Source: Parcubacteria group bacterium Gr01-1014_3
GTDB lineage: Bacteria; Patescibacteriota; Minisyncoccia; UBA6257; WO2-44-18
DNA: 64,000 bases
Direction of reading: 5' to 3'
Assembly (NCBI GenBank): GCA_007376445.1
Contig: VMGF01000002.1
Location: forward strand, 13,673-77,672
This document shows, in pieces, positions 242-47,023 of the stretch. Both the position numbers and the translations under genes were made by a program. The notes under the pieces were generated by a model that was not told the origin of the DNA, searched no databases, and saw only the letters and a list, made by a program, of their open reading frames with translations. Numbering within the stretch: position 1 is the stretch's first letter; each line of letters begins with the position of its first letter.

Positions 242-1027
242 ATGACTTTCTGGGATCTAATTTTGGTCTGGTTCGCGCCGATAGCGATTGGTATCGGCAT
301 CGCTTTTTACTACGCGAAAAGAAAAAAAGATCCTTCGGCTGGCGGAGAAGAATCTCACCCAGAACTTTTATCTATGATCGCGCACCAGCTCCGGTCTCCG
401 CTTACTTCCGTTAAATGGATCAGTGAGCGGCTGGCTACTACAAAATTGGAAGCCGATCAGCGGGATAAAGTTTTAGAAATCCAAAAAGTTAATCAGCATC
501 TGATCGATCTCCTGGAAAATCTGAAAAAAATCGGCAAGGAGAAGCTGAACGGCGAAGCTGAAGGCCGCGAGTATTTTTTAGCGAATCTGGTTAATGAAAT
601 TACAGGTTTATTTAAATCTCCAGCCGAACGTAAAAATATCCGCATTGTTCTCGGCGTTCATCCCGGCATCGGCAAGATCAGGACGGATAAATTTCTGCTC
701 ACTGAGGCTATGAAAAATATCCTTGAGAACGCTATCGATTACTCTCCGGCTGGTTCGACTATCGATATTTCGGTTCGCCAGGACGGAGGGCGCTATGCAA
801 TCGCTATCAGTAACGACAAGGCTTGTCCTGAGCAATTCGACCTTGCTCACTGTAAACTTGCCGAAGGAGGAGGTATTTCGGAGAAAGACGGGGGAGGCTT
901 GGGTTTATTGATCGCGCAAACTGCTATTCGGGCGAATCGAGGAGAGTTAGCGATGAAATCTCCAAATGGACAGGGAGCGTCGTTCGTTATATCCTTGCCA
1001 GGCAGTGAAAATTCGACTGCTCGCTAA
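242..1027 (+). CDS. small sensor histidine kinase (HisKA + HATPase_c, one N-terminal TM)
   Basis: H-box MIAHQLRSPLTSV. G-rich ATP-lid motifs (DGGGLGLLIAQ, GQGASF) are at the C-terminus. Hydrophobic N-terminus. Confidence 0.75.
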   Translation: MTFWDLILVWFAPIAIGIGIAFYYAKRKKDPSAGGEESHPELLSMIAHQLRSPLTSVKWISERLATTKLEADQRDKVLEIQKVNQHLIDLLENLKKIGKEKLNGEAEGREYFLANLVNEITGLFKSPAERKNIRIVLGVHPGIGKIRTDKFLLTEAMKNILENAIDYSPAGSTIDISVRQDGGRYAIAISNDKACPEQFDLAHCKLAEGGGISEKDGGGLGLLIAQTAIRANRGELAMKSPNGQGASFVISLPGSENSTAR

Positions 1028-1065
1028 TGCGAGCCCAGCAACACGGTCGAATTTCTACTTCCTGG
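998..1065. repeat. conserved 20-bp-stem hairpin element, copy R1 (ccaggNagtgaaaaYtcgaS…StcgaRtttctactNcctgg)
   Basis: Inverted repeat around a 28-nt loop. Homologous copies lie at 29760-29817 and 46961-47023 and carry compensatory changes. Confidence 0.6.
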
Positions 1066-1093
1066 CTTGCCAGTGAACTAAGTGCGGGGATAC

Positions 1094-1159
1094 TAAATTC
1101 AATTTTAAATTTTGTAATTAATTCATTAAATTAAAATTGAAAATTTAGATTTTAAAATT
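1094..1159. repeat. diverged partial copy of AT-rich intergenic repeat (F)
   Basis: aattttaaattttgtaattaattcattaaattaaaattgaaaattt resembles the core of copies A-D and abuts the start codon at 1160. Confidence 0.35.
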
Positions 1160-1873
1160 ATGAATATTCATTACCCGGTCCGAATTAACCGCTACCTCGC
1201 GCTTCAAAATATTTGCAGCCGAAGAGAGGCGGATAAGTTAATTTCGGCCGGGCAGGTAAAAATCAATAATAGGATCGCCAAGCTGGGGGATCTGGTAAAA
1301 GAAGGCGACGAGGTCAGCCTGAGTGAAGCCGCAAAGAAGCGGGAGGAGTCGTTGGTTTACATCGCGTATAACAAGCCTTTTGGCGTTGTAACTCACAGCG
1401 CGCAAGACGATGAGTCCGAGATACTTGATGATCCGGCGCTTCAAAAATTTGGCCGACTTTTTCCCGTGGGCAGGCTGGACAAGGAGTCTCATGGCCTGAT
1501 CATACTGACCAACGACGGCAGGATCACTGGAAAATTACTGGAGCCGGAGCGGGAGCATGAAAAAGAGTATCTGGTAAAAACTGATCGGGATGTTGCTGAA
1601 GGTTTTTTAAGGAAAATGGGGAAAGGAGTGCAGCTAGAGGACTTTCGAACAAAAAATTGCGAAGTAGAGCCGGCCGGCCCTAAGTCTTTCCGGATCATTC
1701 TTACCGAAGGCAAGAAGCATCAGATCCGGAGAATGTGCGCGGCGCTCGGTTATCAGACGGTGGACTTAAAAAGGATCCGGATAATGAATATCAAATTAGA
1801 CGGACTCAAAGAAGGAAAATTCAGGATAATTATCGGACAGGAGCTGAAGACTTTACTAAATAGCTTAAAATAG
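1160..1873 (+). CDS. 16S/23S rRNA pseudouridine synthase, RsuA/RluB family (S4 domain + catalytic domain)
   Basis: S4-like N-terminus (RINRYLALQNICSRREADKLISAGQVKIN). Catalytic motif GRLDKESHGLIILTNDG. Confidence 0.8.
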   Translation: MNIHYPVRINRYLALQNICSRREADKLISAGQVKINNRIAKLGDLVKEGDEVSLSEAAKKREESLVYIAYNKPFGVVTHSAQDDESEILDDPALQKFGRLFPVGRLDKESHGLIILTNDGRITGKLLEPEREHEKEYLVKTDRDVAEGFLRKMGKGVQLEDFRTKNCEVEPAGPKSFRIILTEGKKHQIRRMCAALGYQTVDLKRIRIMNIKLDGLKEGKFRIIIGQELKTLLNSLK

Positions 1874-1887
1874 GCATAATTGGGTCT

Positions 1888-3363
1888 ATGACCGCGAATT
1901 GGGGAGACGTCGTTTTGAAATTTAATAAAGTCAGCTTTGCCTATGGACCGAAGAAAACCATTTTGGATTCGGTTGATTTTGTTATCCGCGAAAGAGCCAA
2001 GCTTACCCTGATGGGGCAGAACGGCGCCGGCAAGTCCACTATTTTTAAATTGATCTCTAAAGAGATTCAGCCGGAGGAGGGTTCGATCAATATTAAAACC
2101 GGCGCCACGATTGCTACTTCGATGCAGGTGATACCAAAAGATTGGATGAATGACACCGTGATCCAGTACTTTGAGCGCGCTTTTTCTAAAAAAGTTTATG
2201 ACATTGAGCCTCGCATCAATAAGATATTGAATGTAGTTAACCTGAAAGCGGACCTGAAGAAAAAAATGAATCAGTTCTCCGGCGGCCAACAGGCTCGTTT
2301 GCTTTTGGCTTTCGCCCTCATTCAGAACCCAGACATTCTTTTATTGGATGAGCCTACTAATAATCTCGATAAAGTCGGCATTGAGCATCTGACCAAATTT
2401 TTGATTGAGTATTCTAAGACCTGCGTGGTTATTTCTCACGACGCGCACTTTCTGAACTCATTCACCCACGGAGTTTTATATTTAGATAATTTTAGCGGTA
2501 AGGTTGAGCAGTATGTCGGTGACTATATGAAAGTAGTAGCGGAAATCGCTATACGAATCGAGCGTGAGCGGAAAAAGAACGCGATGTTAAAAAAGGATAT
2601 AGAGAACCGCAAAGAGCAGATGAATTATTTCGCGCAAAAAGGTGGAAAAATGCGTGATGTCGCGAGGAAAATGCGGGAAGCTATCCAAGAACTCGAATCC
2701 CAGCTGGTGGATCTCCGTCAAGAAGATAAAACCATCAAAGATTTCATTATTCCAGTGCAGTCTTTTGAGGGATCGGAGCGTCCGGACTGGAAGATTGTGG
2801 AGATAAAGGCGGTGAATATCATGACGACCGGCAAGCCGTCGGCGAAGAAGGTAAATATCGTTTTAAAGCGGAAAGAGAAGCTTTTGATATCTGGCCCTAA
2901 TGGTATCGGCAAAAGCACTCTACTGGAGGCTTTAGCGAGTGGTAAGGCTAAGGGTATGGGTATCTCCGATGACATTAAGATCGGATATTATAAGCAGGAC
3001 TTTTCCGGTCTGGATTTTGACGAGACGGTTTACAAAACCCTCTCGGACGCGATGACCGGCGGTTCGGATCAGGAACTACGTTCGGCGGCCGCCCAATTTT
3101 TACTGGACGCTGATCTATTGAATAATAAAGTGGGCTCGCTTTCCGAAGGTCAAAAAGGACTGCTTTCTTTCGCACGATTTGTTCTGCAGCGACCTGGCTT
3201 ATTGATCATGGATGAGCCGACTAATCACATCAACTTCCGCCACTTGCCAGCGGTCGCCAAGGCTTTAGATAAGTTTGAAGGCGCGTTGATTCTCGTTAGT
3301 CACTCGCCAGAGTTTATCAAGCAGATCAATATTGATCATAAATTGGACCTTGGGGATTTATAA
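1888..3363 (+). CDS. ABC-F family ATPase (two tandem ABC domains, no TMD)
   Basis: Two Walker A motifs (GQNGAGKST, GPNGIGKST). Two signature motifs (FSGGQQARL, LSEGQKGLL). Two Walker B motifs (LLLDEPTN, LIMDEPTN). Confidence 0.8.
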   Translation: MTANWGDVVLKFNKVSFAYGPKKTILDSVDFVIRERAKLTLMGQNGAGKSTIFKLISKEIQPEEGSINIKTGATIATSMQVIPKDWMNDTVIQYFERAFSKKVYDIEPRINKILNVVNLKADLKKKMNQFSGGQQARLLLAFALIQNPDILLLDEPTNNLDKVGIEHLTKFLIEYSKTCVVISHDAHFLNSFTHGVLYLDNFSGKVEQYVGDYMKVVAEIAIRIERERKKNAMLKKDIENRKEQMNYFAQKGGKMRDVARKMREAIQELESQLVDLRQEDKTIKDFIIPVQSFEGSERPDWKIVEIKAVNIMTTGKPSAKKVNIVLKRKEKLLISGPNGIGKSTLLEALASGKAKGMGISDDIKIGYYKQDFSGLDFDETVYKTLSDAMTGGSDQELRSAAAQFLLDADLLNNKVGSLSEGQKGLLSFARFVLQRPGLLIMDEPTNHINFRHLPAVAKALDKFEGALILVSHSPEFIKQINIDHKLDLGDL

Positions 3364-3365
3364 AA

Positions 3366-3497
3366 CCGAAACTAACTCTTTTTCAGAACCAGAATAACCG
3401 GCCTCCAGCGGGCCGGTTTTCTTCTCTCTCGGTGGTTTTTAAACCAAGCAAAACCGCCTCCGAGATGTTCCGAAAAAGAGTTAGTTTCGGTTTTTTT
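3366..3497. repeat. structured ~130-nt repeat / candidate ncRNA, copy 1 (long closing helix, internal hairpins, 3' T-run)
   Basis: ccgaaactaactcttttt at 3366-3383 pairs with aaaaagagttagtttcgg at 3473-3490. Internal hairpin ccggcctccagcgggccgg. Homologous copy at 39574-39724. Confidence 0.5.
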
Positions 3498-4437
3498 ATT
3501 TAAGCAGTCCTTTAAGATTTTCCAGCGCGGATTTTAGTGCGTCGAGAAGCGAGGCGGTGGCGTTTTGAGTATTTGCAGAAGAGCAAAGACTGGCGAAGTT
3601 GGTGCCGCCGGATTCATCGTACCAGTACCGATAATGCAGAGTTCCATCCGGGTCCATAAGCTCCGGATCGAAACCGCCATACATCCCTCCTTGCTTAAAT
3701 AGCAAAATATCTTTATAGCAGACGGCGCCTGGCGCGTTGGAGTTAGACGCTGTTTTATCATAGAACCTAATTGGCTTGGTATGATCCGTGAAGGTGTATT
3801 TAGCAGGGTCTGTGAATTCGCAGATGTTTTTAATGCCAATATAATTCAATTCATTAATATCCTCACAAGGTGAGTAGCCAGTGATCGGGTTAACATTAGC
3901 TACTGTATTAGCTGGATCTCCGGCATAAAGAAAGGCGCGTTTGTCCCTGGGCGATACTCCAGCATACAAGAAACTGCCGGTGCCAAAGTTAATGTATCGG
4001 TTAGGAAGAACGGTGCCGGTACCAGTTTTAATGACCGGCTTTGGGGCTGGAGCGGGCGCCGGAGCTGTAGCTGGTGATGGAATCGGCGTTGGCGTTGGCT
4101 GAGGCGCTGGAGCTGGCGTACCCGCCTGGGCTCGAATTGTGGTGAATTTTGCCCTTGTTATTGGCCCAACTATACCAACGGCTTCAATTCCATTTTTAGC
4201 CTGCCATCTTTTAACGGCCGCTTCAGTCAGTAAGCCAAAGTATCCGGTTACCAAACCTTCTGGATAAACATCTTTATACTGCGCCAAGAAAGTTTGGAGC
4301 AGGCGAACGTTCTCGCCGCGGATGCCTACGTATAATGGAGTGGTTAATACTGGTGGCAATATTGATGAAGCAGTCTGCGCGGAGGCTATCGTGGCCAAAC
4401 CCAAAAACAACGAGCTCAAAAGTGTTTTTTTTACCAT
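3496..4437 (-). CDS. secreted protein with peptidoglycan-binding (PG_binding_1-like) domain and Pro/Ala-rich linker
   Basis: Signal peptide MVKKTLLSSLFLGLATIASAQ. Start trimmed to ATG at 4437 (complement of 4435-4437). PG-binding-like LLQTFLAQYKD…GYFGLLTEAAVKRWQAKNG. Linker PAPAPQPTPTPIPSP. Confidence 0.6.
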   Translation of the reverse strand: MVKKTLLSSLFLGLATIASAQTASSILPPVLTTPLYVGIRGENVRLLQTFLAQYKDVYPEGLVTGYFGLLTEAAVKRWQAKNGIEAVGIVGPITRAKFTTIRAQAGTPAPAPQPTPTPIPSPATAPAPAPAPKPVIKTGTGTVLPNRYINFGTGSFLYAGVSPRDKRAFLYAGDPANTVANVNPITGYSPCEDINELNYIGIKNICEFTDPAKYTFTDHTKPIRFYDKTASNSNAPGAVCYKDILLFKQGGMYGGFDPELMDPDGTLHYRYWYDESGGTNFASLCSSANTQNATASLLDALKSALENLKGLLK

Positions 4438-4528
4438 AGTTAAATTATAGCATCCCATACATAATTTGTTATGTGTGGGATAGCAAATTGAATAAAAATA
4501 AGCCGCTGATTGCGGCATTCGGTCTTGT

Positions 4529-4602
4529 TGGCTGGGGGGCTAGGAATCGAACCTAGATCTGCTGCTCCAAAGGCAGCCGTGTTACCATTGCACTACCCCC
4601 CA
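4529..4602 (-). tRNA. tRNA-Gln (anticodon UUG)
   Basis: The reverse complement folds as a cloverleaf. Acceptor stem UGGGGGG/CCCCCCA with U1-A72, G73 and encoded CCA. Anticodon stem GCUGC/GCAGC with loop CUUUGGA. T-arm CUAGG-UUCGAUU-CCUAG. Confidence 0.85.
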
Positions 4603-5268
4603 ATAATTACAGATGTGGTCTACCCAGGCGGAAATTTTTCTATTTAGATTCGTGCTTTTCCGCACTATGATTCTCAGTAATCCATTATAGGCGATTCCCG
4701 TATTTTTTCGACCAGTCTTTAGTTTATGCTCCTTGAAATATACTTTAATTTTTCTCTTATCGCAAGACACTGTTTTTGCCCAAAAACTCAACGCCTTTTC
4801 GATATCCGCGGTGTTATGTATATATAAAGCGAAGGCGATTTCATTTTTCGGTATTTTTATAATTGTTAACAACCAGCCTAAAAATACCTTTATCATTTTT
4901 GGATCAGAATTATTAAAATTTACTTGCTGGCTGACCAGGTGTTCCTTTGCTTTTGAGCCCTCAGCCCAATAGAGCATAATACCGGCAAGCCATAAATGAT
5001 CATTGTTGAGTTCTCGCATTTCTTGAAAAGCCTCATTTTTAATTTGATCCATAAGAGTAAGGCGTTGCTGATGTCTGGCAATCGCGCCCCTTTGTTGAGC
5101 AAGAATTTTCTTTTTAGTTAGGCGCCGATGTGTTTGTTTTGCTAATGCAACCGAATGTAGCCATGACGATAATGTTGATTTTGCAACCGGAATTTGCGCC
5201 AAAATTTCGGAGTAGGTTAGCCCCCGCCTTCTTAGGATTATTGCCTGCGTTTTTGGATCACTTTTCAT
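4582..5268 (-). CDS. hypothetical protein with N-terminal HTH; weak LAG…EG-like motif (possible homing-endonuclease-like)
   Basis: HTH-like GLTYSEILAQIPVAKSTLSSWL. Motif WLAGIMLYWAEGSK. The last ~20 nt overlap the 5' end of tRNA-Gln. Confidence 0.4.
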   Translation of the reverse strand: MKSDPKTQAIILRRRGLTYSEILAQIPVAKSTLSSWLHSVALAKQTHRRLTKKKILAQQRGAIARHQQRLTLMDQIKNEAFQEMRELNNDHLWLAGIMLYWAEGSKAKEHLVSQQVNFNNSDPKMIKVFLGWLLTIIKIPKNEIAFALYIHNTADIEKALSFWAKTVSCDKRKIKVYFKEHKLKTGRKNTGIAYNGLLRIIVRKSTNLNRKISAWVDHICNYWGVVQW

Positions 5269-5336
5269 ACTGACATGAACACCAAACGTCTTTTTTAGTA
5301 TAACATACCGCTATTCAATTTAAAACACTTCATTTT

Positions 5337-6233: not shown

Positions 6234-6235
6234 AA

Positions 6236-29733: not shown

Positions 29734-30204
29734 TTGTCATCGTTATCGTCATTTGCATACCAGGTAGTGAAAACTCGAGTGATGCATGGTGGTCTTGCTC
29801 GAGTTTCTACTACCTGGCATAGTTTCCGTATAATGATGCGCTTTCCAAAGAATAGTCGGGAATACCACTGGACCAGCCACATCAAGGGCAAGATGGTTTT
29901 TTACCAGATCTCCGAGCAGAAAATTAAGACTATTTTAAAGTCTCCTAGCCGGAAAGAGATCGGCATCGCGCCGGAGACTTCGGCCTTTATGAAAAGAAAT
30001 GATACTCCAAAGCGAAAGCAAGAGATATGGGTGATGTTCGCGAACAATAAAAATTCCAAGCTGGAAAAAGTTAGCGCCAAAACTATTATGATCAGCGCTT
30101 GGCGGTATCCGGGCATTAGCAAGGCAGGCGATGCGATTCCTGTGCCGGAAGATATTTTGGCGGAATTAAGAGATCAGAATACTTGGCTTGGGCATCTGGA
30201 GTAA
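29734..30204 (+). CDS. hypothetical protein (start codon uncertain)
   Basis: The ORF spans hairpin R3. A downstream Met (MMRFPK… or MVFYQ…) is the more likely start. No domain recognised. Confidence 0.35.
   Translation: MSSLSSFAYQVVKTRVMHGGLARVSTTWHSFRIMMRFPKNSREYHWTSHIKGKMVFYQISEQKIKTILKSPSRKEIGIAPETSAFMKRNDTPKRKQEIWVMFANNKNSKLEKVSAKTIMISAWRYPGISKAGDAIPVPEDILAELRDQNTWLGHLE
29760..29817. repeat. conserved 20-bp-stem hairpin element, copy R3
   Basis: ccaggtagtgaaaactcgag…ctcgagtttctactacctgg. Both arm positions are substituted together relative to R1 and R2. Confidence 0.6.
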
Positions 30205-30282: not shown

Positions 30283-32298
30283 TCACAGATCCTTTTGATT
30301 ATCCTTTGTTTGTTCGTATCCCTTTTTTATAGAGTCTTCCACATCTTTCTCGAACTTTTCTGATGCTAGATAGGCCTCTCGGTCGGATTTCGACTTCTCC
30401 AGTCCGAGCTGATCAACGAGCGAGATAATATCTTTCTTCAGCCAGTCGTCGTAGGTGTTTTTCAGCAGGTCTTCCGCGACCTTCCGAGCCTGGTCGTCAT
30501 TGTTGCGACCAATCTCCTTGAACCAGCCTGCGATCCGTAGACGAGCTTCGGCGCAGTAATAATCGGCGAGATGGATGAAGCGATGCTTGTTGGGATTCTG
30601 CTTCAGCGCGTCAACCATATTCAAATCGTTCGCGTAGAAGCAGGCAGCGGTCATGGCGTAAAGTTCGGTAGCGATATTCGCCAGCCGCATAAAGAGCAGC
30701 TGCTTGTGCGGAAGCTTCGCGCGGTATTTGGCCGAAGACCAGATGACGGTTTTGGCTAGCTTACGAGCCATGCCGTCCACATAATCGAGGTGTCGCTTTA
30801 GTGTTCTCGTGTGAATCTGTGTATCGGTCTTGCGGCGGAAGGTGAGTCGGAATAGATCCCAGCCGAAGCCAAGAGCCGCGCCAAACTTCTTAAGCCACTG
30901 TCCCTTTTCCAGGAACACTTCGCCGCGCTTCTTATATTCATCGATACCTTCACGGATGATCCACTGACTCAAAATTTCAGACGAGCCTTCGAATATCCGA
31001 TTCGGGCGGAAATTCCGGTGAATCGCTTCGGTCGGAATCGGCGGTTCCCCGCGATTCTCCAGCGACTTCGCCGTTTCATACCCGCGTCCGCCGCGCATCT
31101 GCATCAGGTCGTCCACGATCTTCCAACCGCGTTCAGAGGCGTACACCTTGCAGGCAGCCGCTTCCATCCGGGCGTCGAGCTTATGGTCCACGCGATAAGT
31201 CGCGTACCAGCACATCGCTTCCATCGCGAAGGAATTAGCGAGACCGGGAGCGAGCATACCACTTCCAACTGCTTCGTGCTTTCCGATCTGCTTGCCCCAC
31301 TGACGACGTTCATTGCCCCACCACTTGCCGATCAGCAAGCACTGGCGGGAGATCGCCGCGCAGGATCCGGCCACCGCGAGACGTCCTGTATTCAGGGCCT
31401 CCATCGCAATCTTAAATCCGAGACCTTCCTTTTCACCAACGAGCTGTTCCTTGGGAACGTGCACGTTATTGTAGGTGATCTCGCTATTGTACATACCGCG
31501 AAGTCCTTCGAACTGACAACGCTCCCACGAAAGGCCTTCGCTGTTAGTCGGGATAATGAAGGCGCTGAAACAGGGCTTGTAGCCTTTTTCGTGAATTTCT
31601 TCAGGTTTATCGACGGTTTTCACGATCAGGCAGATGAGAGGGGAGACGCACTCCGAATCATTCTTCGCGCCGTTGGTCATCCACCACTTCTTTCCGGTGA
31701 TATGATAGCCGGTCACAACGCCGGATTCATCCTTTATCCGTACCGCGACTGTCTCCATATTTGCCGGATCGGATCCGGCACCGGATTCTGTGAATGAAAA
31801 TCCGGAGGGTGAGCTCGCGACCTTCGGCAAATACTTTTTCTTCTGTTCGTCCGTGCCGTAACCCTTGAGCGGCCATCCAAGACCGATAGAGTTCGAGGCC
31901 GAAAGCAGGGCCACTAAGGCGCCACAATAACTGGCAGTCAGCGACATTAGGCGCATGTAATCGCTCTGCGAAAGATTCTTGCCGCCGTATTCGACGGGGA
32001 TCTTCAGGCCAAAAAAGCCCTCTTCACAAAGCCACTCCATCGCGCGATTGGAAATACGATCGGTATCTTCGACGTTCTGCGGGTCAACTTCGGTCATCAA
32101 GAAATGACGAAGCTTCGCCAGCATCTTCTCGCCTTCTCGCTTTTCATCCGCGGTTTCGAAATTCTGACAAGAAGCAAAAAGTTCAAAGTTCGCTCTGCCG
32201 CGGAAAAGATCCGCCATAAAACCATCGTGCCGCTTCTTATCGCGCTGCTCTTCAGCGATCATTACGCCCTGTCCGAGCTTGGACATGTCCATGGCCAT
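30283..32298 (-). CDS. acyl-CoA dehydrogenase, long form with C-terminal extension
   Basis: ACAD N-, middle and C-terminal domains. Active-site region GGRGYETAK…IFEGSSEIL. ~670 aa. Confidence 0.85.
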   Translation of the reverse strand: MAMDMSKLGQGVMIAEEQRDKKRHDGFMADLFRGRANFELFASCQNFETADEKREGEKMLAKLRHFLMTEVDPQNVEDTDRISNRAMEWLCEEGFFGLKIPVEYGGKNLSQSDYMRLMSLTASYCGALVALLSASNSIGLGWPLKGYGTDEQKKKYLPKVASSPSGFSFTESGAGSDPANMETVAVRIKDESGVVTGYHITGKKWWMTNGAKNDSECVSPLICLIVKTVDKPEEIHEKGYKPCFSAFIIPTNSEGLSWERCQFEGLRGMYNSEITYNNVHVPKEQLVGEKEGLGFKIAMEALNTGRLAVAGSCAAISRQCLLIGKWWGNERRQWGKQIGKHEAVGSGMLAPGLANSFAMEAMCWYATYRVDHKLDARMEAAACKVYASERGWKIVDDLMQMRGGRGYETAKSLENRGEPPIPTEAIHRNFRPNRIFEGSSEILSQWIIREGIDEYKKRGEVFLEKGQWLKKFGAALGFGWDLFRLTFRRKTDTQIHTRTLKRHLDYVDGMARKLAKTVIWSSAKYRAKLPHKQLLFMRLANIATELYAMTAACFYANDLNMVDALKQNPNKHRFIHLADYYCAEARLRIAGWFKEIGRNNDDQARKVAEDLLKNTYDDWLKKDIISLVDQLGLEKSKSDREAYLASEKFEKDVEDSIKKGYEQTKDNQKDL

Positions 32299-34543: not shown

Positions 34544-35813
34544 TACTCACCCCTTTCCAGGCAAGCGGCGACACCCTGGCCGCCGCCAACACAAAGAGTA
34601 ACCAATCCGCTCGTCGCGCCGGTAAGCTCAAGTTCCTTGGCGCAGGTAAGCACCAGGCGAGCGCCACTCGCGGAAATCGGATGGCCAAGCGCGATCGCGC
34701 CGCCGTTCCGGTTAACTTTTTCCGGCGAAAGCCGGCCGAAGTTATCCTTAACCAATTCAAATTCTTTCTGCTGGGCCAAAACGACCGCGGCAAAAGCTTC
34801 GTTGGTCTCGATCACATCAATATCGTCGAGAGTGCTCCAGTCATGGCTAAAGATTTGCTTGATAGCCTGAACCGGGCCAAGGCCCATTCTTTCGGGCACA
34901 CATCCACCAATCGAAGAAAATCTTGAGTACATAGTCGCCAGGAGCGGCCAGCCATTTTTCTTGGCCAGCTCTTCGTTAACCACCATCAGCGCGACCGCGC
35001 CGTCCGTGATCTGAGAAGAATTTCCTGGCGTAACTGTGCCGCCCTTGTGGAGAGGTCGCAGTTTACTAAGAGCCGACAGATTCTGGTCGAAACGAATTCC
35101 GTTGTCCTGATCGATACCGCGGAACGGTACGATCTCGTGCTTCAGACGGCCGGAAAGCGTTGCCGCCTTCGCGCGCCGCTGAGATTCGAGAGCGAACAAG
35201 TCCTGCTCTTCGCGAGAAATCTTGTACTCCTCGGCAATCTGATCCGCGATCTCGTCCATACCCAGTTTACAAACCGGATCGGTCAGACCGATCTTGATCG
35301 ACCACTCCGGCTTATGCGGCATCATTTTCATTTTTGTCCACTCCTTCATTAAAGAAGGAAGGCGGCGCCACATCGGCGCCTTCTTGCGCGAAACCTCGTA
35401 AAGTTTCGCGAATTGGGCTCGCTGTTGGCGATTGTAGACCGCGACGTAGTCCGACATCACTTCTGATGCCACCACTAGGATGCATTTGTACAAACCAAGC
35501 TCAACATTCTTTACCGCGTCGAGCACGGCGTGAAGCCCGCTCCCGCAGTTAATGTTAACCGTCCAGGCCGGAATTCTTGGGTCGAGTCCTGCCTTGAGCA
35601 AGATCACTCGCGCCAGATTCGAGCCGTCCGGGTGAAGCACCTGATTGCCAATATTGGCGCCAACCACGCAATCACAAGATTCCTTCAGCTTCGGATAACG
35701 CTTAAAAAGCTCGCCAACCGGCGTCAAAGCCATCTCGCTCGCGGAAAGATCAGGAATTGTTCCCGCCTTCAAAAACGGCGTCCGCACTCCATCAACGATC
35801 ACTGCCTTGTTCA
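34543..35813 (-). CDS. acetyl-CoA C-acyltransferase (thiolase, FadA-like)
   Basis: GTG start at complement 35811-35813 after AAGGAG (MNKAVIVDGVRTPF). Active-site Cys context NINCGSGL. C-terminal GGGQGVA. TAATG overlap with the next gene. Confidence 0.85.
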
Positions 35814-35935: not shown

Positions 35936-36427
35936 ATGATGACCGACCCAAAGCTTCGTGAGCTTGAGAAGAAGGTTAATGAACGCAAGAAGCTCGTTGA
36001 ACGGATCATGGTTTTTGTGGAAAAAGTCCTTGTAAAGCATGGCAAGGAGACATACCGCTATGAGGGGTCTTGCCATACCAACACGAAATACGAATTAAAA
36101 GCAGGGAAGTTTTTACTAAAGGGTAGTTTTGGCCAAACCCAAATGGGAGGTAATAATGTTTACATTCTTTATAAAGATAAAGAGGTTTTCCAGGTTTACT
36201 ATCAAGCCAACCTGGATGAATGTCGGGTTGATGTTTTTGAAAATGGAGCTTGGTTACCAGCCTTCCAGAAGTTGATGCATAATTTCAAAGAGGTGATTGC
36301 GAGAGTTAATAAGAAACAGAAAGACAGCGCCAGTAAATTAGAAAATAAATCGTTGATTGAAGAAAAGCGCAAGCAACTTCTAATCAAAGCTAAGCGACTT
36401 GGCTTGCCTACCGACGGGCAAGCCTGA
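35936..36427 (+). CDS. hypothetical protein
   Basis: RBS GAGGTG. Own terminator at 36427-36452. No domain recognised. Confidence 0.4.
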   Translation: MMTDPKLRELEKKVNERKKLVERIMVFVEKVLVKHGKETYRYEGSCHTNTKYELKAGKFLLKGSFGQTQMGGNNVYILYKDKEVFQVYYQANLDECRVDVFENGAWLPAFQKLMHNFKEVIARVNKKQKDSASKLENKSLIEEKRKQLLIKAKRLGLPTDGQA

Positions 36428-37613: not shown

Positions 37614-37917
37614 TCGCTAGCTCCCTTCTGCCTTTCGGCATGTAAATGAACTTGCAATAAAATACCATTTTATATGGATTACGTCAATTCAAAGAAAACG
37701 CCCATCTCCACAAGGGGACAGGCGTTTTCTAAGAATAAAATATTCACAACGAGAAATTATCTGTCCCTAATGGGTTGGATTTAGCACCTTACGGTAAAGC
37801 AGGTTGCTGGAGCTTCATAGGGCCAAGACCCTCGGCTCACTCTTGATAATATTTCGTTGTCAAAGTTCAAGTGCTTATTACAACCGCTATCCTATCAGAT
37901 TGGTTTCCTTAGGTCAA

Positions 37918-40701: not shown

Positions 40702-40744
40702 ATAGTCGAAAGTTCGTAAAGTCAAAAGTCCTTAAAGCACATTA

Positions 40745-43075
40745 ATGTATAACGCACTTTTAATTTCTTTCGGAATTCCGCTGGTAGTTTTTCTGATCGG
40801 AATCGGCGTAGCCGTGGCGGTTAAAAATCACCGGAAAAGATTTCTTGGAGTTTTAAATTTAAAACCCCTGATTGTCACGCTACGTCAGAAAACCGATGGT
40901 GATAAAAAAGATCCACTCGCTGAAATCAGCCTTTCCAGTCAGCTTTTTAGTTTACTGACCAACCTCAAAAATCCCTTCTCACTCGAACTTGCCGTGCATA
41001 ATGTTGGCGAAGACATTCATTTTTATATTTCCGTGCCGGAAGATTCGATCGATTCGGTGAGCCGTCAAATTCAAGGACTATGGTCCGAGGCGGATGTGCG
41101 GAAAGCGGGGGATTACACTATTTTTAATTCCGGCGGAGTGGCCCGCGTGGCATTTTTAAAACAAAAGAATCATTACGCTCTTCCGGTCCGGACTTATACT
41201 GAAGCTGGTCTGGACACCTTTTTAACTATCCTGAATAATTTTTCCAAGGTAGAGATGGTAGGGGAGGGTTTGGCTCTCCAGGTAGTGGCGAAACCGGCTC
41301 AATCCAGCACGGTAAAAAATATAGACAGGATGATCATGGGGCTTAAAAAAGGCGTGAAGTTATCCGATGCCTTGAATGGCAAAGTTTCACTGCCAACGCC
41401 GAAAAAAGATGAAGTAGCGCCACAAATCATTGTTGATGAAGAAGCAGTCAAAAATCTGATCTCCAAGATCTCTAAACCGCTTTTTGAGGTGAATGTGCGC
41501 CTAGTCGCGTCCGCTATGTCGGCTTATCGCTCAGAGGAACTTTTAAATAACTTAAGCGCCGCCTTTTCTCAGTTTACCGCCCCAAACCGGAATGAATTCA
41601 AGGTTAATGAACCGGCCAATCCTTCCAAGCTGATTTTTAAATATATATTCCGCCAGTTCGATTCCTCAGAATCGATGACTCTAGGCGCCGATGAATTAGC
41701 GAGCATATTTCATTTCCCAACTTCCACCACCGAAGTTCCGAAGGTTAAATGGCTTAAATCTAAAGAGGCCCCACCGCCAGCCGTCTTGCCGGAAAATGGC
41801 GTGGTGATCGGCGAAAGCCGCTTCCGAGGCGAAGTTAAAACCGTCAGAATAACCGACGAAGACCGCCGGCGCCATGTTTATATCATCGGTCAGACGGGTA
41901 CCGGTAAATCCACCCTGCTTATCGAAATGGCCGCTTCCGATATCGCGGCTGGAAAAGGTTTGGCCGTCATCGATCCACACGGCGATCTGATTGATTCTAT
42001 CCTTGCCCACATCCCAAAGAATCGGGTGGATGATGTGGTGGTATTTGATCCGGGTGATACCGACCGGCCACTTGGTTTGAATATGCTTGAGTACAACCCA
42101 GCGCGACCGGAGGAGAAAACTTTTATCGTCAACGAGATGCAGAGTATTTTCAATAGACTTTTCACCGCTGAAACCATGGGCCCGATGTTTGAACAGTACA
42201 TGCGGAACGCGCTTTTGCTTTTAATGGATGACCCAAATGAAAAAGCGACCTTAATGGAAATTCCCCGCGTGTTTACCGATGCCGAATACCGGAAACGGCT
42301 GATCGCCAAGGCGAAAAATCCGGCGGTGATTGATTTCTGGGAAAAGGAAGCCGTGAAAGCCGGTGGTGATGCTTCGCTCGCGAATATGACGCCTTACATC
42401 ACTTCGAAATTCAACAATTTCACATCCAACGACTACATCCGGCCAATCATTGGCCAGCCGGTGTCAGCCTTTAATTTCCGGAAGATCATGGATGAAGGCA
42501 AAATCCTTTTAGTTAATCTTTCGAAGGGCAAGATAGGGGATATCAACTCCAATCTTCTGGGCATGGTAATCGTTGGTAAAATTCTGATGGCCGCGCTGTC
42601 CCGCGTGGATCTGCCACAAGAGCAGAGAAAGGACTTTAACCTGTACATAGATGAGTTCCAGAATTTCACCACGGATTCTATTTCCACGATTCTTTCCGAG
42701 GCCCGGAAATATCGTCTGAACTTGATAATCGCGCACCAATTTATCGGCCAATTAAATGAAAAAATCCGGAACGCGGTGTTTGGCAACGTAGGGGCGCAGA
42801 TAGTCTTCCGGGTAGGGGCCGAAGATGCTGATTTTCTCATAAAACAGTTCGAGCCGGTCTTTTCCAAGCAGGATCTGCTTAATATTGACAATTTTAATAG
42901 TTATGTTAAAATGCTCGTGAACGGTCAGACAACCAAGCCGTTCAACATAGCGCTATTGGCGCCTAATAAGGGAATCCCCGGTTTAAGCTCAAAATTAAAG
43001 GAATTATCGAGATTAAGATATGGTAAGCAAAGAGCGGAAGTAGAGGGGGATATCCTGGGGCGTTTAAGGGGCTAA
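40745..43075 (+). CDS. membrane-anchored P-loop ATPase of the FtsK/HerA superfamily (VirD4/TraG/DUF87-like)
   Basis: N-terminal TM. Walker A YIIGQTGTGKSTLL. DPHGDL. Walker B-like LYIDEFQNF followed by ARKYRLNLIIAHQFIGQL. ~370-aa N-terminal region of unknown function. Confidence 0.55.
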   Translation: MYNALLISFGIPLVVFLIGIGVAVAVKNHRKRFLGVLNLKPLIVTLRQKTDGDKKDPLAEISLSSQLFSLLTNLKNPFSLELAVHNVGEDIHFYISVPEDSIDSVSRQIQGLWSEADVRKAGDYTIFNSGGVARVAFLKQKNHYALPVRTYTEAGLDTFLTILNNFSKVEMVGEGLALQVVAKPAQSSTVKNIDRMIMGLKKGVKLSDALNGKVSLPTPKKDEVAPQIIVDEEAVKNLISKISKPLFEVNVRLVASAMSAYRSEELLNNLSAAFSQFTAPNRNEFKVNEPANPSKLIFKYIFRQFDSSESMTLGADELASIFHFPTSTTEVPKVKWLKSKEAPPPAVLPENGVVIGESRFRGEVKTVRITDEDRRRHVYIIGQTGTGKSTLLIEMAASDIAAGKGLAVIDPHGDLIDSILAHIPKNRVDDVVVFDPGDTDRPLGLNMLEYNPARPEEKTFIVNEMQSIFNRLFTAETMGPMFEQYMRNALLLLMDDPNEKATLMEIPRVFTDAEYRKRLIAKAKNPAVIDFWEKEAVKAGGDASLANMTPYITSKFNNFTSNDYIRPIIGQPVSAFNFRKIMDEGKILLVNLSKGKIGDINSNLLGMVIVGKILMAALSRVDLPQEQRKDFNLYIDEFQNFTTDSISTILSEARKYRLNLIIAHQFIGQLNEKIRNAVFGNVGAQIVFRVGAEDADFLIKQFEPVFSKQDLLNIDNFNSYVKMLVNGQTTKPFNIALLAPNKGIPGLSSKLKELSRLRYGKQRAEVEGDILGRLRG

Positions 43076-43199
43076 GGCCCGCCGAAGGCGGACAGGTAGA
43101 GATAAAAATCGCGACCTTGTGTGAGGAAGCGGTTAAAAATATAGGAAGTTCTTTTCAAAACAAAAAACCCACGCCGATGGCTGGGTAAAGGAGGAAGGT

Positions 43200-44297
43200 A
43201 TGATCACGTGCAGAGAGGCGCTGAGTACGCCTGGCTTCACTCACTGGTTGGTGAGAAACTTCGCGGACCACGCATCTCTGGATTACAGTAATCCAGCGGA
43301 TGAGGAGAGGATCGTGAAGTGGTTCCTGGCGCGCGTTGCCTGCAGAGAAGCAGCTCCGCTGATGCGCCAGATGTACCGCGAAATGTTCCTCGGCGACATT
43401 GGGCTTTGCCTGTCGAATTCCATCCTGGGATCGGTCGAGAAGTATCTCGATCGTCTGGCGATCGAGAATCCGGAAGGCGCGGCCTACTACTGTGAGCGGG
43501 CCAAGCGCTGGCATGAGATCCCGCGCGAGATCCAGAGGCTGACGGAAGAGTACGCGCAGGCAGGCGGTGAAGGCCGCCGCGACCAGGCGAGTCTCGACCT
43601 CGCTTCCACTCAGCGCGACTGCGAACTTCGCAAGCGCGTGGGTCGCTTCCTTCCCCTCTGGCGTTCTGCCGAAGAGAAAGAGGTGATGCAGTACCCGTTC
43701 GGCGCACTGGAGAGTTCGATCCAGACGTTCAAGGTTGAGTTGAACAGGTTCGCCCAAATCGAACAGCAGATCCCGGCTCTTCAAAAGGAGCGTTGGGATC
43801 TCAAGCGTGAGTTCCTCACGGTCATGGATATCGTAAAGGAACTGCTTGTTGAGATTCGCATGGAGGTGAGCTCCAAGCTCATTGAAATGGTGAGCAGGGT
43901 TCGGGTCAAGAAGGACTGGCGGGATCGCTCGGTTGAGGAACTCGAAGTGGCGCAGAGCTATCTCGAGAAGATGCAGGCGGCGGGAGCGGAGTTCGGATTG
44001 GATTACCTGGCCGATATCGACAATGTGGTGGGTTTCCAGAAAAATCTGGATGACGCCATCTCCCGGAGCCTGTATGAAGATCTGAAGAAGCGGATGGTCG
44101 CGCAAAACAAGCAGCCGGCCTCCGTTGCTCTTCCGGCCGTCGAGAACCTGATCAATCAGGCGCTCGCCCGCACTCAGTTGGGATCCCTCCGGGATTACCA
44201 AGCTCGCGAGGCCGTGGTCAAAACGCTGCAGGATCTCCACAGAGATGGAGCCATCAGCGGAGCTCACAAGCTCTTGTTTCGACCCATGGCCCGATAG
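43200..44297 (+). CDS. hypothetical all-alpha protein, GC-anomalous (~58 percent GC)
   Basis: Strong RBS AAGGAGG 6 nt upstream. Intrinsic terminator at 44341-44378. The antisense 413-aa ORF is rejected. Confidence 0.5.
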   Translation: MITCREALSTPGFTHWLVRNFADHASLDYSNPADEERIVKWFLARVACREAAPLMRQMYREMFLGDIGLCLSNSILGSVEKYLDRLAIENPEGAAYYCERAKRWHEIPREIQRLTEEYAQAGGEGRRDQASLDLASTQRDCELRKRVGRFLPLWRSAEEKEVMQYPFGALESSIQTFKVELNRFAQIEQQIPALQKERWDLKREFLTVMDIVKELLVEIRMEVSSKLIEMVSRVRVKKDWRDRSVEELEVAQSYLEKMQAAGAEFGLDYLADIDNVVGFQKNLDDAISRSLYEDLKKRMVAQNKQPASVALPAVENLINQALARTQLGSLRDYQAREAVVKTLQDLHRDGAISGAHKLLFRPMAR

Positions 44298-44340
44298 CAG
44301 CCCCTCCTCCAGCCCTAGCCGCCAACAGGCGGCAGGGCAG

Positions 44341-44378
44341 CCCCTAGACGACACACATCGTTTAGGGGTTTTTTTAAT
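44341..44378 (+). terminator. rho-independent terminator
   Basis: cccctagacgacacacatcgtttagggg followed by a T-run. Confidence 0.65.
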
Positions 44379-44615
44379 TCCGGTCTGAATTTTCAAGCTG
44401 ATAAGCGTAGAAAATTAAGCCACCGGAATTAAACCCCACACTAATTTTGCAGATATATAAGAAGCGCTACGCGGGCGGCGAATAGCCGTGATCCCTAGCG
44501 TATCGCTGTTTTAATTTAGAAAAGACTTAAAGATATAAAAATTTAAATATTGAAAATGCAAAATTAGTGCGGGGTAATCTAGCTATACTTTTAATGATTT
44601 TATATAATTAATAAT

Positions 44616-45131
44616 ATGAAAGAAGTAATGCCTAAAATACACCCAGAAAAGCAGGAAGTCATTGTCCGCCATCCGGAGCCGATTAAAATACCCAAAAGAT
44701 TCACGAAGCCGCCAGAAAAAAAGATGGCGCCAACGGTAGAGAAAAAAATGGAAAAAGACGCCCTGGATAAAGTCTTAGATATCCTAGAAGACGCGGAAAA
44801 TAAGCTAATAAAAGAAGGTCCGGTGAAATTAGCGGGCAAAGGCTTGCGTAAAAGTTCGGAAGTTCTTGTTGAAAGGCCCATTAAAAATATTTTCAGTGGC
44901 GTATGGGAAGGAATAAAAAAGATGTTTTCTTCCACTGAGTCGGAAACGATGGCAATGCCTAAAGGATCGACGATCGAGACCGAAGCCGAGAATGTTTTAG
45001 ATCTTTCACGCTCGGGAGCGACCAGAAAAGAATTGAAGGAGGAGGTAGGCAAGATAGAAAAGCAAGGGTTAACCACCAAAGAAAAGGAGGTGGTCGCGTT
45101 CAACCGGTTAAAGCAAAAGAAAGGTAAGTAG
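44616..45131 (+). CDS. Lys/Glu-rich, probably disordered hypothetical protein
   Basis: 171 aa, about 35 percent K+E. No domain recognised. Confidence 0.35.
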   Translation: MKEVMPKIHPEKQEVIVRHPEPIKIPKRFTKPPEKKMAPTVEKKMEKDALDKVLDILEDAENKLIKEGPVKLAGKGLRKSSEVLVERPIKNIFSGVWEGIKKMFSSTESETMAMPKGSTIETEAENVLDLSRSGATRKELKEEVGKIEKQGLTTKEKEVVAFNRLKQKKGK

Positions 45132-45240
45132 TTATTTATAAATAACCGATCTTCCGGAGCCAAAATTCGTTCTCCCACTCCCACCGAGTCAAACTCGGTT
45201 AGAGTTTGTGAGGTGAGCCGAGTCTGACTCGGCTACTATA

Positions 45241-46014
45241 TTATAAATAGCCAATTTTTTGTAACCAAAAAACATTTTCCCATTCCCACAATTTCTTAGC
45301 CGCTAAAAATGCCTGAAAATCCTCCCGCCAATAAGGGAATTCTTTTAATTCCACGATACCTTTGAGTTCTGACCAATCATGGCCATCTTCCGGGCAAGCG
45401 GGAACTGTGCCGCGCCAAGCGGTCTTAATCTTGTCCTGGCCGCCCTTTGGCCGAAGAGTAGCCTTACAGCGCTGACAATCTTTTTGCTGATCAATGCGCA
45501 GGATCCAGCGAGTTTCCAGACCGGCAAACTCCGGTTCGCGCTTTAAGGCGTCCATATAGGCAGAGGTTTGGAGATTGTAATCGCGATAGATTGATTGCGA
45601 TGTCTTAATATCCAACACGCCGAACTTACCACCAATCGTCGCCATCGCGTCGATCGTGCCGGAATACCGATGGGCAAAGTTAATGATCCGGCGCTCAACA
45701 TGCGGCGCCTCAACTTTAATATCGTTATTCTTTAAAAAATTAATCGTGGCTTCAACGGCTGGAGCAATCTCCGGGGGTATGACAGGGGATTCACCAACCA
45801 TGAATTTTTCCACGATTTCATGGACGAGCGTGCCTTCTTCGGCTGATTTTTTGGTTTTCGCTTCGGCTTCTTCAAAATTCTTCGCGGCGGCGTAATAGCG
45901 GTAAAGCGCTGGTTTGGATTTAATTTCTAAAATTTTAGTAACACGCGGGAGCCACTGACCATCAATTTCATATCCGGCCGCGGCTTTAAATTCTTCCGCT
46001 GTTTTGTAATACAT
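45241..46014 (-). CDS. PD-(D/E)xK nuclease, RecB/Cas4-like, with C-terminal Cys3-His cluster
   Basis: Motif I GTLVHEIVE. Motif II YSGTIDAM. Motif III VLDIKTS. QxxxY as LQTSAYMDAL. C-terminal CQRC…CPEDGH. Confidence 0.55.
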   Translation of the reverse strand: MYYKTAEEFKAAAGYEIDGQWLPRVTKILEIKSKPALYRYYAAAKNFEEAEAKTKKSAEEGTLVHEIVEKFMVGESPVIPPEIAPAVEATINFLKNNDIKVEAPHVERRIINFAHRYSGTIDAMATIGGKFGVLDIKTSQSIYRDYNLQTSAYMDALKREPEFAGLETRWILRIDQQKDCQRCKATLRPKGGQDKIKTAWRGTVPACPEDGHDWSELKGIVELKEFPYWREDFQAFLAAKKLWEWENVFWLQKIGYL

Positions 46015-46071
46015 GAGAATACTATAAAGTATGCCATGCCCGCCGACGAGCGGGAAGCTAGAATGATAACT

Positions 46072-46185
46072 TAATTTTAAATTTTTGAATTATAAATTTT
46101 AAATTAATTTTTAATGATTTAATTTTGAAATTGAATATTTAGTCATTAAATTAAAATTAAAAATTTAGCATTTAAAATTATTAAA
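46072..46185. repeat. AT-rich ~110-bp intergenic repeat, copy C (inverted orientation)
   Basis: Reverse complement matches copy A nearly base for base. Confidence 0.6.
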
Positions 46186-46261
46186 GATAGAGATGAATTA
46201 GTAATTCTTGATTCTGCGCTTACAGGAGAGTACAATCGAGACAGTTATTTGAAGGTGGCAA

Positions 46262-46930
46262 ATGGCTCTAAAGGGCGATGAAGTCGCGTATCTGATAGCT
46301 GATTTGAGAAAACAAAGAGAAGAGCTGGCGCTACAAGATTTTCACTATAAGATTGGCTGGAATGAAGCTGATCTTTATGATCTCTTCAAGCAGTTCGAGG
46401 ATACAATTATGCAAGTGGCTTACAGCGAATTATTTACGCTGACACCGGGCCGGTTGCCATTTTTGGTGGTCTTTCCGCCATCTAGCGCGGCAAACGAAGA
46501 CAAGCTCAAGGAGCGTCTGGCTATGCTTGGTTTTTCGGCAACAATGAATCAGATTCAGGTTAAGTTGTCTCAGATTGAAGACATAGAAAAAGAGGGGAGT
46601 TATCCTTATATAATTTTTGATGTTGACCCGGGATATCTCATGAAAGACACGCGCTATTCCGCGGTTGTTCTTCAACAAATGAAACCGGTTCGTAGGCGGC
46701 TAACATTCTTTGAAGCAGTTTCGATGGCGCCTAAAATCAAGGTGAACTTTCAAATCGTGATAACTGGAGCTCGTTACATAGACGAAGACACCTCTCCGGC
46801 AATTGATTTTGCCATGTCAAAAGCGGCGCCAATCATTAACCACTTCGATCTGAACAATACTAGCGCCCGCATCGGAATACCTTCTTGCGTGGAACCAGAG
46901 GTTTATAAATCCAAAACTGCCGTCTATTAA
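46262..46930 (+). CDS. hypothetical protein
   Basis: 222-aa ORF with a terminator at 46929-46952. No domain recognised. Confidence 0.4.
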   Translation: MALKGDEVAYLIADLRKQREELALQDFHYKIGWNEADLYDLFKQFEDTIMQVAYSELFTLTPGRLPFLVVFPPSSAANEDKLKERLAMLGFSATMNQIQVKLSQIEDIEKEGSYPYIIFDVDPGYLMKDTRYSAVVLQQMKPVRRRLTFFEAVSMAPKIKVNFQIVITGARYIDEDTSPAIDFAMSKAAPIINHFDLNNTSARIGIPSCVEPEVYKSKTAVY

Positions 46931-46952
46931 CTGCCCCAATGGGCAGTTTTTA
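46929..46952 (+). terminator. rho-independent terminator
   Basis: ctgccccaatgggcag followed by TTTTTATTT. Confidence 0.7.
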
Positions 46953-46960
46953 TTTGCTTG

Positions 46961-47023
46961 CCAGGAAGTGAAAATTCGACTGTTTTGGACTCATTTCCGG
47001 ATGGTCGAATTTCTACTTCCTGG
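46961..47023. repeat. conserved 20-bp-stem hairpin element, copy R2
   Basis: ccaggaagtgaaaattcgac…gtcgaatttctacttcctgg. Both arms and the cttgccagg/cctggcttg flanks are near-identical to R1. Confidence 0.6.

Follow-up and report, generated by a model that had tools for sequence, protein, structure and literature searches.

Three hairpin repeats in a 64,000-nucleotide stretch of the Parcubacteria group bacterium Gr01-1014_3 genome (contig VMGF01000002.1, positions 13,673 to 77,672 of the forward strand; the window in what follows) are probably non-autonomous copies, akin to MITEs (miniature inverted-repeat transposable elements), of a tiny transposable-element family of the Patescibacteria, or candidate phyla radiation (CPR), whose coding partner is a GIY-YIG nuclease similar to the Ssn proteins. 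The element ends in a 20-nt arm, CCAGGNAGTGAAAAYTCGRY, and its near-complement, RYCGARTTTCTACTNCCTGG; short forms of 58–77 nt have a variable spacer between the arms, and long forms of 297–327 bp (~315 bp) have a single gene. The original prediction, made from the window alone, had recognized the three hairpins, which we call R1, R2 and R3, and had taken the preservation of their pairing through sequence changes as a sign of selection on a folded RNA or a cruciform or recognition site rather than of recent copying. The hairpins and their pairing stand, but the dismissal of copying was wrong.

The three copies, all short and non-autonomous, lie where the prediction had put them, in one common orientation on the + strand: R1 at 998–1065 (68 nt), R3 at 29760–29817 (58 nt), and R2 at 46961–47023 (63 nt). 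Left arm, loop and right arm occupy 998–1017, 1018–1045 and 1046–1065 in R1; 29760–29779, 29780–29797 and 29798–29817 in R3; and 46961–46980, 46981–47003 and 47004–47023 in R2; the R1 loop holds a GC-rich mini hairpin of its own (GCTCGC-TAAT-GCGAGC, 1019–1034). The arm patterns match the window six times (three copies with two arms each) where 0.05–0.08 matches are expected, and none of 100 dinucleotide-preserving shuffles gets there. When the window is searched, unfiltered, using a covariance model of 93 family members, only R1, R2 and R3 are returned, at 64.8, 65.3 and 64.6 bits respectively (E ~1e-14), and the next match has an E-value of at least 2; the weak matches at 36190–36215, 45184–45232 and 34557–34579 (E 2–9) are unrelated hairpins, probably terminators or chance. 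The stem is 20 bp in each copy, and the paired substitutions that had been noted in R3 are present: where R1 and R2 have T-A at pair 15 and C-G at pair 20, R3 has C-G and G-C, both changes being compensatory. At pair 6, R2 has A-T, R3 has T-A and R1 has mismatched C/T; all three copies have G·T as pair 10 and A·C as pair 11. Single-strand folding energies (in kcal/mol) are about −33 for RNA of the + strand, −27 to −30 for RNA of the − strand and −15 to −18 for DNA (z −5 to −8).

Each window copy is flanked by a 4-bp direct repeat, overlooked in the original prediction: CTTG at 994–997 and 1066–1069 around R1, CATA at 29756–29759 and 29818–29821 around R3, and CTTG at 46957–46960 and 47024–47027 around R2. 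Filled and empty orthologous sites were compared at the R2 locus, upstream of prkA, where the window reads ...TTTG-CTTG-element-CTTG-AATCCC. In a relative whose PrkA is 84% identical (L102) the same site reads ...GGGGCGGTTTTTTTATC-CTTG-AATACC..., with a single CTTG and no element; in a second relative with an 89% identical PrkA (L101) there is only a right-arm stub, ACTTCCCGG-CTTG, representing the final 9 nt of the arm (L101:2924–2932). The R2 site is therefore an insertion polymorphism with a target-site duplication (TSD). For R1 and R3, look-ups of the exact neighbouring proteins returned no record or only the strain of the window itself. A terminator-like hairpin with a T run (CTGCCC-CAA-TGGGCAG, 46931–46951) ends a 222-aa open reading frame (ORF) just 5′ of R2, and because a hairpin and T run are found at the same place in both L101 and L102, R2 must have inserted between the terminator and the prkA leader.

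As predicted, the copies lie upstream of + strand genes, with 94 nt (R1), 15 nt (R3) and 67 nt (R2) to the next + strand ATG; this location reflects a preference of the element for gene boundaries and not a shared regulon. R1 also ends a histidine-kinase ORF (HisKA and HATPase_c, 242–1027, +), supplying its final nine codons and its TAA stop (1025–1027), which falls in the tip of the R1 mini hairpin. The insertion site is within 12 nt of the kinase stop, and the C-terminus, now ...ISLPGSENSTAR, reads ...ISLPVN before the stop if R1 plus one CTTG is removed from the sequence. Between R1 and the rluB-like gene is a highly AT-rich spacer (1080–1159) with internal repeats (aaatt/ttaaa motifs). The public call for the ORF 3′ of R3 (29782–30204, +, 140 aa), whose product has no Pfam match, starts at an ATG (29782) in the R3 loop; the frame is open from 29734 and runs through the whole of R3, and a start at 29833 looks likelier for this ORF.

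We scanned one genome per species with the pattern CAGGNAGTGAAA-N20-50-TTTCTACTNCCTG and obtained 99 loci, almost all in metagenome-assembled genomes (MAGs) of CPR/Patescibacteria; the sequences throughout are mostly MAGs, and ORF calls in the loci are simple. In all, about 100 further copies with the same arms are found in CPR/Patescibacteria genomes, in groups that include Portnoy-, Saccharibacteria, Paceibacteria, Harrison-, Lipton-, Doudna-, Gottesman-, Azam-, Jorgensen-, Giovannoni- and Yanofskybacteria, and one Portnoybacteria MAG has 14 loci. Identical copies are present at different loci. A few pattern matches (L004, L036, L058, L078 and L088) come from MAGs whose labels are not CPR (Lunatimonas, Humimicrobiaceae, Gammaproteobacteria, Rickettsiales). 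Of these, L004 and L088 are without duplications and look like chance or degenerate matches, and L058 and L078 are typical copies that may reflect mis-binning or horizontal transfer. A search for phage carriage gave no matches in viral contigs. P0031 was rejected as a multi-locus copy, its contigs all being one locus seen across many samples. The arm map of the 99 loci contains no kilobase-scale element between arms, the L047 pair at 2837/6595 being a chance match in a coding region. Searches of Rfam and the literature turned up no description of this family, and the paper on Ssn discussed below was the sole related work that they returned.

The duplications are general to the family. Among 104 copies with readable flanks, 69 have perfect 4-nt repeats and 13 more have repeats with one mismatch, as against just 9% of unpaired flanks that match in a control. 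The repeats lie immediately outside CCAGG...CCTGG and comprise 17 different tetramers, of which TATG is the commonest (25 copies). Copies also insert in one another, always at GTGAAAA^TTCGAC within the left arm and with AAAA duplicated, and tandem copies with one shared TATG occur. The target duplications, the empty site and the nested and tandem insertions show that the family is mobile and that its copies are mobile-element insertions. A 31-nt sequence, CCAGGTAGTGAAGCAAAGCTCTATTACCTGG, flanked by cttcg at L005:6733–6763 is a deletion remnant, and a sister hairpin family with other ends (CCCCGTAGTGAAATTTCGA...TCGAAATCCTACTACGGGG) and a CTGG TSD is seen at L017:958–1025 (− strand), where it sits in the loop palindrome of another copy to give a triple nesting in L017:915–1128.

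The loops had been described as unrelated, which holds in that the internal sequence of the short copies is not conserved, but it overlooks a recurrent mini hairpin. A perfect GC-rich hairpin of at least 5 bp is present in 62 of 100 short-copy loops, and among shuffled loops the figure is 6.7%. It sits immediately beside one arm, at that arm's inner end, and may be on the top strand (43) or the bottom strand (20); an A/T-rich stretch often comes after it.

The same arms, in L039:186–580 and L078, enclose an 88-aa ORF in the arrangement CCAGGTAGTGAAAATTCGACSGCGATT-ATG...stop-GTCGAATTTCTACTACCTGG with TATG as the TSD, and the ORF is a GIY-YIG domain (Pfam PF01541, 6.5e-13) with no match in NCBIfam. 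Its 120 closest public homologues are 70–99% identical and mostly from named CPR, and at least 55 of them are annotated with the N-terminus MPGSENS(T/I)AI, which is the translation of an ATG and the left arm. A scan of metagenomes for arms separated by 270–300 nt yielded 110 loci, with 86 distinct long elements among them; several of the contigs come from the Hainich wells. Short and long forms share their arms. The nuclease is 86–93 aa in length with a single domain, in which G19, R27, E51, R62 and E63 are invariant and Y4/Y6, Y17, H31 and N32 near-invariant; since Y4/Y6, Y17, G19, R27, H31, N32 and E63 make up the GIY-YIG catalytic set (Y, Y, R, H, E, N), the predicted active site is conserved. 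The ORF runs left to right with the arms in 74 of the 86 long forms and is flipped in the other 12, which suggests inversion between the arms; one flipped form, at L103:1500–1830, has the GTAGAAA arm first and the N-terminus MPGSRNS. More distant GIY-YIG genes (47–50% identity) at L050:5664–5945 and L090:2316–2574 are enclosed by other tight inverted repeats. The architecture is thus a general one, in which each nuclease lineage has repeats of its own. The L050 element is on the dnaJ start codon with TGAA as its TSD, and the terminal A of the element rebuilds the ATG.

Long forms show a strong relationship to start codons. Perfect TATG duplications are present in 41 of the 86, an ATG lies directly 5′ of the left arm in about 54, and the nuclease ORF shares the frame of that ATG in 34 and lies in one of the other two frames in 20; in most, the nuclease stop is 19–20 nt from the element end. 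When empty sites are reconstructed by removal of the element and one repeat, 36 of the 51 long forms but only 21 of the 68 short forms yield a start codon, and 12 further short forms are on or close to a stop codon. As a logo, the target reads T(.84) A(.94) T(.94) G(.88) in the long forms and Y-W-T-R in the short forms. The family thus has a preference for start codons.

The only ORF in these elements is a GIY-YIG nuclease and not a transposase of a recognized class, and an alternative explanation is that they are ordinary MITEs of the DDE type, moved by an unseen transposase with the same terminal repeats (CCAGGNAGTGAAAA...TTTCTACTNCCTGG), with the GIY-YIG gene as a passenger or an invading homing gene. 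Terminal inverted repeats (TIRs) of 20 bp and a 4-bp duplication are typical of DDE elements (IS5, IS701, IS1380), and the left and right repeats of insertion sequences co-evolve because one protein binds both, so that seemingly compensatory changes could arise in this way. We nevertheless consider it unlikely. The GIY-YIG gene is the only ORF found between arms in the 99 loci of the first scan and the 110 of the second, and the 86 long forms have constant tight junctions; the left arm is translated as part of the nuclease in the many homologues described above; and the different TIRs of L050 and L090 indicate that the repeats co-vary with the nuclease lineage. Furthermore, one small genome (PEYL01) contains several inner-stem variants side by side, as would fit a system that recognizes structure over sequence.

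The claim that pairing is kept while sequence changes is strongly upheld in the wider family. We scored 19 pairs in 95 distinct copies with the loop removed and found 98.8% of cells to be paired, with changes on both sides in 138 cells compared with 29.6 in shuffles; none of 500 shuffles reaches the observed covariation. Sliding the partner by 1–3 columns reduces pairing to 28–45%, and past pair 20 it is about 50%. Pairs 1, 6 and 15–20, which the search pattern leaves free, all covary. In about 15 copies found only by the covariance model, and so free of the pattern constraint, the outer stem compensates too (CCGGG/CCCGG, GAAAG/CTTC, GAAAC/GTTC) and the G·T/A·C asymmetry is kept in most, such that arm substitutions in further copies behave as the original prediction required. 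In the long forms, with ~270 nt of coding sequence between them, the arms are Watson-Crick paired at 751 of 765 free positions and covary; in the short forms they are so at 824 of 900, and the transition mismatches are 27 G·T and 19 A·C.

These data bear on whether the constraint is on RNA or on DNA. The G·T and A·C counts are similar, and neither strand therefore tolerates wobble in the way that an RNA helix would be expected to. At the gathering threshold of Rfam 15 the window matches only a SAM riboswitch and a tRNA, and an E-value scan of four loci gives chance-level hairpin matches only (E 0.1–0.9). A short upstream ORF from the upstream ATG (MPGSENS...) usually ends inside the element, and in short forms at start codons no frame or translational-coupling signal is apparent (9:9:11). 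From the pairing of the long forms, the balance of mismatches, the lack of Rfam matches and the lack of a frame preference in the upstream ORF, we conclude that the pairing constraint acts on DNA, or equally on both strands. The part of the earlier proposal that invoked a recognition site is thus close to our preferred reading, and the folded-RNA part finds no specific support.

The strongest form of the RNA interpretation is a structured cis-regulatory RNA in which the hairpin is selected in 5′ leaders, for stability, RNase III processing or translational control, and the copies are independent sites. It would account for the very stable folds (−33 kcal/mol, z ~−7) and the position of copies upstream of co-directional genes, and about 30% of the short copies are exactly between the ribosome-binding region and the start codon, where a flush hairpin could hold the two close; there is also an orientation bias relative to the downstream gene (TATG 25, CATA 5), which short forms have in common with long ones. 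It is quite improbable, in our view, since target duplications, the empty site, nesting and tandems are the products of insertion and not of evolution in situ. The absence of an Rfam family, the near-equal numbers of G·T and A·C, the nearly equal folding of the minus strand, and the tighter pairing of the long forms in spite of a translated ORF of ~270 nt between their arms all argue in the same direction, and the flanking genes are unrelated, with copies also at stop codons and inside other copies. Some other hairpin types can be set aside. An intrinsic terminator is ruled out because the right arms continue CTTGCC, CATAGT and CTTGAA with no T run; attC sites, REP sequences and CRISPR repeats are ruled out on anatomy (a TSD is present, and there are no arrays and no integrase or RAYT); and the identity of AATTTCTACT to Cas12a repeats we judge a coincidence, there being no arrays.

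The elements invite comparison with Ssn proteins, single-domain GIY-YIG enzymes of ~94 aa (CDD cd10448) that bind a hairpin repeat, NTS or SRM, in single-stranded DNA (ssDNA) and make their cut some nucleotides to its 5′ side (Chenal et al., Nat Commun 2025, PMC11893778). Ssn is inactive on double-stranded DNA and RNA and still cuts a hairpin built from two half oligonucleotides; ssn genes are flanked by repeats in a manner described as 'identical to' an insertion sequence, and a mobile origin is hypothesized there, with no target duplications and no CPR members reported (PMC11893778). The best plasmid matches to the CPR nuclease are GIY-YIG genes of Rhizobium and Azospirillum (41–42% identity, E 2e-6; L223 and L224), which have canonical SRMs on both sides (e.g. 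CGTCATCCCCGCGAAGGCGGGGATCCAG) in inverted SRM hairpin pairs; the Azospirillum unit is situated between sufB and sufC. Profile comparison of the CPR nuclease with these SRM-flanked genes using hhalign gives a probability of 97.9% and an E-value of 4e-13, and at the level of sequence the nuclease is homologous to SRM-flanked genes of the Ssn type. UPF0213 proteins are about as close to it, and two of these, BH0048 and EF2693, are its only solved relatives by sequence. An AlphaFold (AF2) model (pLDDT 84) has BH0048 as its nearest match, followed by structures of Slx1 (probability 1.0, TMq 0.58–0.63), with far weaker matches to UvrC and I-TevI. An exhaustive profile search finds 13,144 clusters at 50% identity with E ≤ 1e-3 and just 9 with E ≤ 1e-30, and the arm-carrying clade is hence a small branch of a large family.

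There is also a resemblance at the level of the repeats. The loop arrangement CGAC-TG-GTTGCC-GAA-GGCAAC is similar to the SRM arrangement CGTC-AT-CCCCGC-GAAG-GCGGGG, and nested insertions are 3 nt 5′ of CGAC, which is the geometry of the published Ssn cut. We regard these similarities as a lead by analogy.

Given these relationships, the hairpins could be part of a domesticated host system of the Ssn/SRM type, as proposed for Neisseria, in which now immobile hairpins are marks cut by a host ssDNA nuclease so that DNA that is incoming or single-stranded is kept under control. The homology of the nuclease to SRM-flanked Ssn-type genes, the multiple intergenic copies and the published function (PMC11893778) are all compatible with this. 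It is, however, very unlikely as the whole explanation: the R2 site is polymorphic between close relatives, identical copies are found elsewhere and in nested and tandem arrangements, many nuclease ORFs are decayed, and the nuclease gene is inside the repeat unit at varied loci. Domestication would lead one to expect one syntenic nuclease locus in each genome and hairpins at the same positions in different species, and the reverse is observed. Polymorphism, dispersal and ORF decay are the behaviour of an active selfish element, although domestication and a mobile-element family are not mutually exclusive.

The family resembles Ssn/SRM loci in its single-domain GIY-YIG gene of ~90 aa, and partly in the bracketing of that gene by hairpin-forming inverted repeats with many extra copies. 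The anatomy is different in that the two ends of the element form one stem, as 20-nt TIRs directly adjoining the ORF, each flank being half a hairpin, whereas Ssn loci have self-contained hairpins of ~28 nt on each side. The CPR element also has the 4-bp TSD, the TATG/start-codon target, nesting, tandems and an empty site, none of which is mentioned in PMC11893778, and its hosts are CPR. In its TIRs and short TSD it resembles MITEs and insertion sequences with TIRs (such as Correia elements of Neisseria, Rickettsia palindromic elements, and IS5/IS1380-derived MITEs). As in those, the non-coding short copies have the same ends as a coding partner, and an insertion at the end of a gene can rewrite a protein terminus, as at R1. 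Unlike these, the partner is ~315 bp with an 88-aa GIY-YIG protein and not a DDE, DEDD, HUH, serine or tyrosine transposase, and the inner TIR covaries instead of being conserved. What is new is best described as an Ssn-like GIY-YIG partner in an otherwise known design of TIR/TSD element with MITE-like derivatives.

UPF0213 proteins (YhbQ/YazA; PDB 1zg2, 1ywl) and Slx1 are the nearest solved folds and sequences, and Slx1 cuts branched and stem-loop DNA; YhbQ and YazA belong to the Slx1 family, and Slx1 is a structure-selective nuclease (PMC7017083). These differ in being single-copy host genes with no flanking repeats reported, and Slx1 depends on Slx4 and carries a zinc-finger domain in addition. 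Homing endonucleases of the GIY-YIG type, whether free-standing or encoded in introns (I-TevI, Seg proteins), are likewise selfish nuclease genes beside or within host genes, but they have a large DNA-binding domain and spread into one cognate allele through break repair, and TIRs, target duplication and non-autonomous derivatives are all lacking. With REP/REPIN-RAYT and IS200/IS605 systems the family shares dispersed hairpin repeats and the proposed recognition of an ssDNA hairpin; those systems differ in their HUH chemistry, covalent intermediates, subterminal hairpins and lack of target duplication. That the hairpins are themselves REP/REPIN-type repeats spread by a RAYT (IS200/IS605-like HUH) transposase is extremely improbable, for although they are extragenic hairpin repeats that contain GTAG (CCAGGTAG..., reverse complement ...GTAGTAGAAA), no HUH/RAYT gene is associated with them, only GIY-YIG, and a 4-bp TSD is usual here where REPINs and IS200/IS605 make none.

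We propose a mechanism for the transposable-element family in which the GIY-YIG protein would mobilize long forms in cis and short forms in trans. By analogy with Ssn, the nuclease would recognize the fold-back of both arms in ssDNA, and such recognition would account for an inner stem in which pairing is conserved but sequence is not. Long forms appear to have no promoter or ribosome-binding site of their own and would be expressed by the signals of the host gene: the duplicated TATG would set the host ATG before the nuclease ORF, preferentially in frame to give the MPGSENS... N-terminus, and the second TATG, placing a start codon 19–20 nt past the nuclease stop, would restore that of the host gene, which would stay translatable. 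The window copies are probably passive, with side effects that may include the altered kinase C-terminus (R1) and stable hairpins in 5′ regions (R2 and R3). We tentatively suggest that the ~315-bp long form, with an 88-aa Ssn-like nuclease that would recognize its own ssDNA fold-back and a 4-bp TSD at TATG starts, could be the smallest autonomous bacterial transposable element described.

Several points weigh against this interpretation. The family is read from sequence, and every step of the mechanism after insertion is an inference. A hydrolytic nuclease of 88 aa is not known to join strands, and so does not by itself account for the 4-bp duplication. The nuclease gene is absent from the 64-kb window; among the long forms the ORF is intact in about 60 and disrupted in 26 of 86, and in-frame placement behind the upstream ATG (34 of 54) is a preference and not a rule. 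The published SRM consensus, HGTCWYN(0-2)YYVSBRHN(0-5)WNVSBRGN(0-2)RNCYNB, has no match in the window and seven in 1.47 Mb of CPR loci, compared with four in each of the positive controls L223 and L224. The search patterns fixed the outer 12–13 nt of each arm, so that conservation there is partly circular, and only the ~15 independent covariance-model matches relieve this. Finally, it is possible that the hairpin brings an extra benefit at the RNA level, for example in keeping the host start codon usable.

Elsewhere in the window, there is a SAM-I riboswitch at 37754–37852 (−, 69.7 bits) and a tRNA gene at 4532–4602 (−). The SecY protein is most similar to those of Harrisonbacteria and Parcubacteria. 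The gene downstream of R2 begins a prkA–DUF444 (yhbH-like)–spoVR operon (47091–51358, +), which is unusual content for a CPR genome; PrkA has 13 relatives at E ≤ 1e-100 in the protein collection, of which the named ones are Patescibacteria. A 671-aa acyl-CoA dehydrogenase (30283–32298, −) is also unusual for CPR. The gene rpmD (L30) is absent between the genes for S5 (55891–56400) and L15 (55491–55886) on the − strand, which are separated by a 4-nt gap; loss of L30 is known in CPR, and the missing gene is consistent with this.

Three anonymous hairpins have thus become a defined mobile-element family across many CPR lineages, which annotators have reason to mask, since public gene calls already begin inside elements, including that of the ORF after R3 and those of many nuclease genes with a translated arm. 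The family offers sequence-level evidence that single-domain GIY-YIG nucleases and hairpin repeats form mobile units like insertion sequences, so far a hypothesis for Ssn/NTS, and raises the mechanistic question of how an 88-aa hydrolase achieves insertion with a 4-bp duplication. The nuclease/hairpin pairs may extend the toolbox of programmable ssDNA nucleases. If the long form is indeed such an autonomous element, a GIY-YIG class would join the DDE, DEDD, HUH, serine and tyrosine classes of transposons, and Ssn/SRM systems would descend from, or still be, mobile elements. For the CPR bacteria themselves, the targeting of start codons suggests a compact way of borrowing host expression signals in very small genomes.

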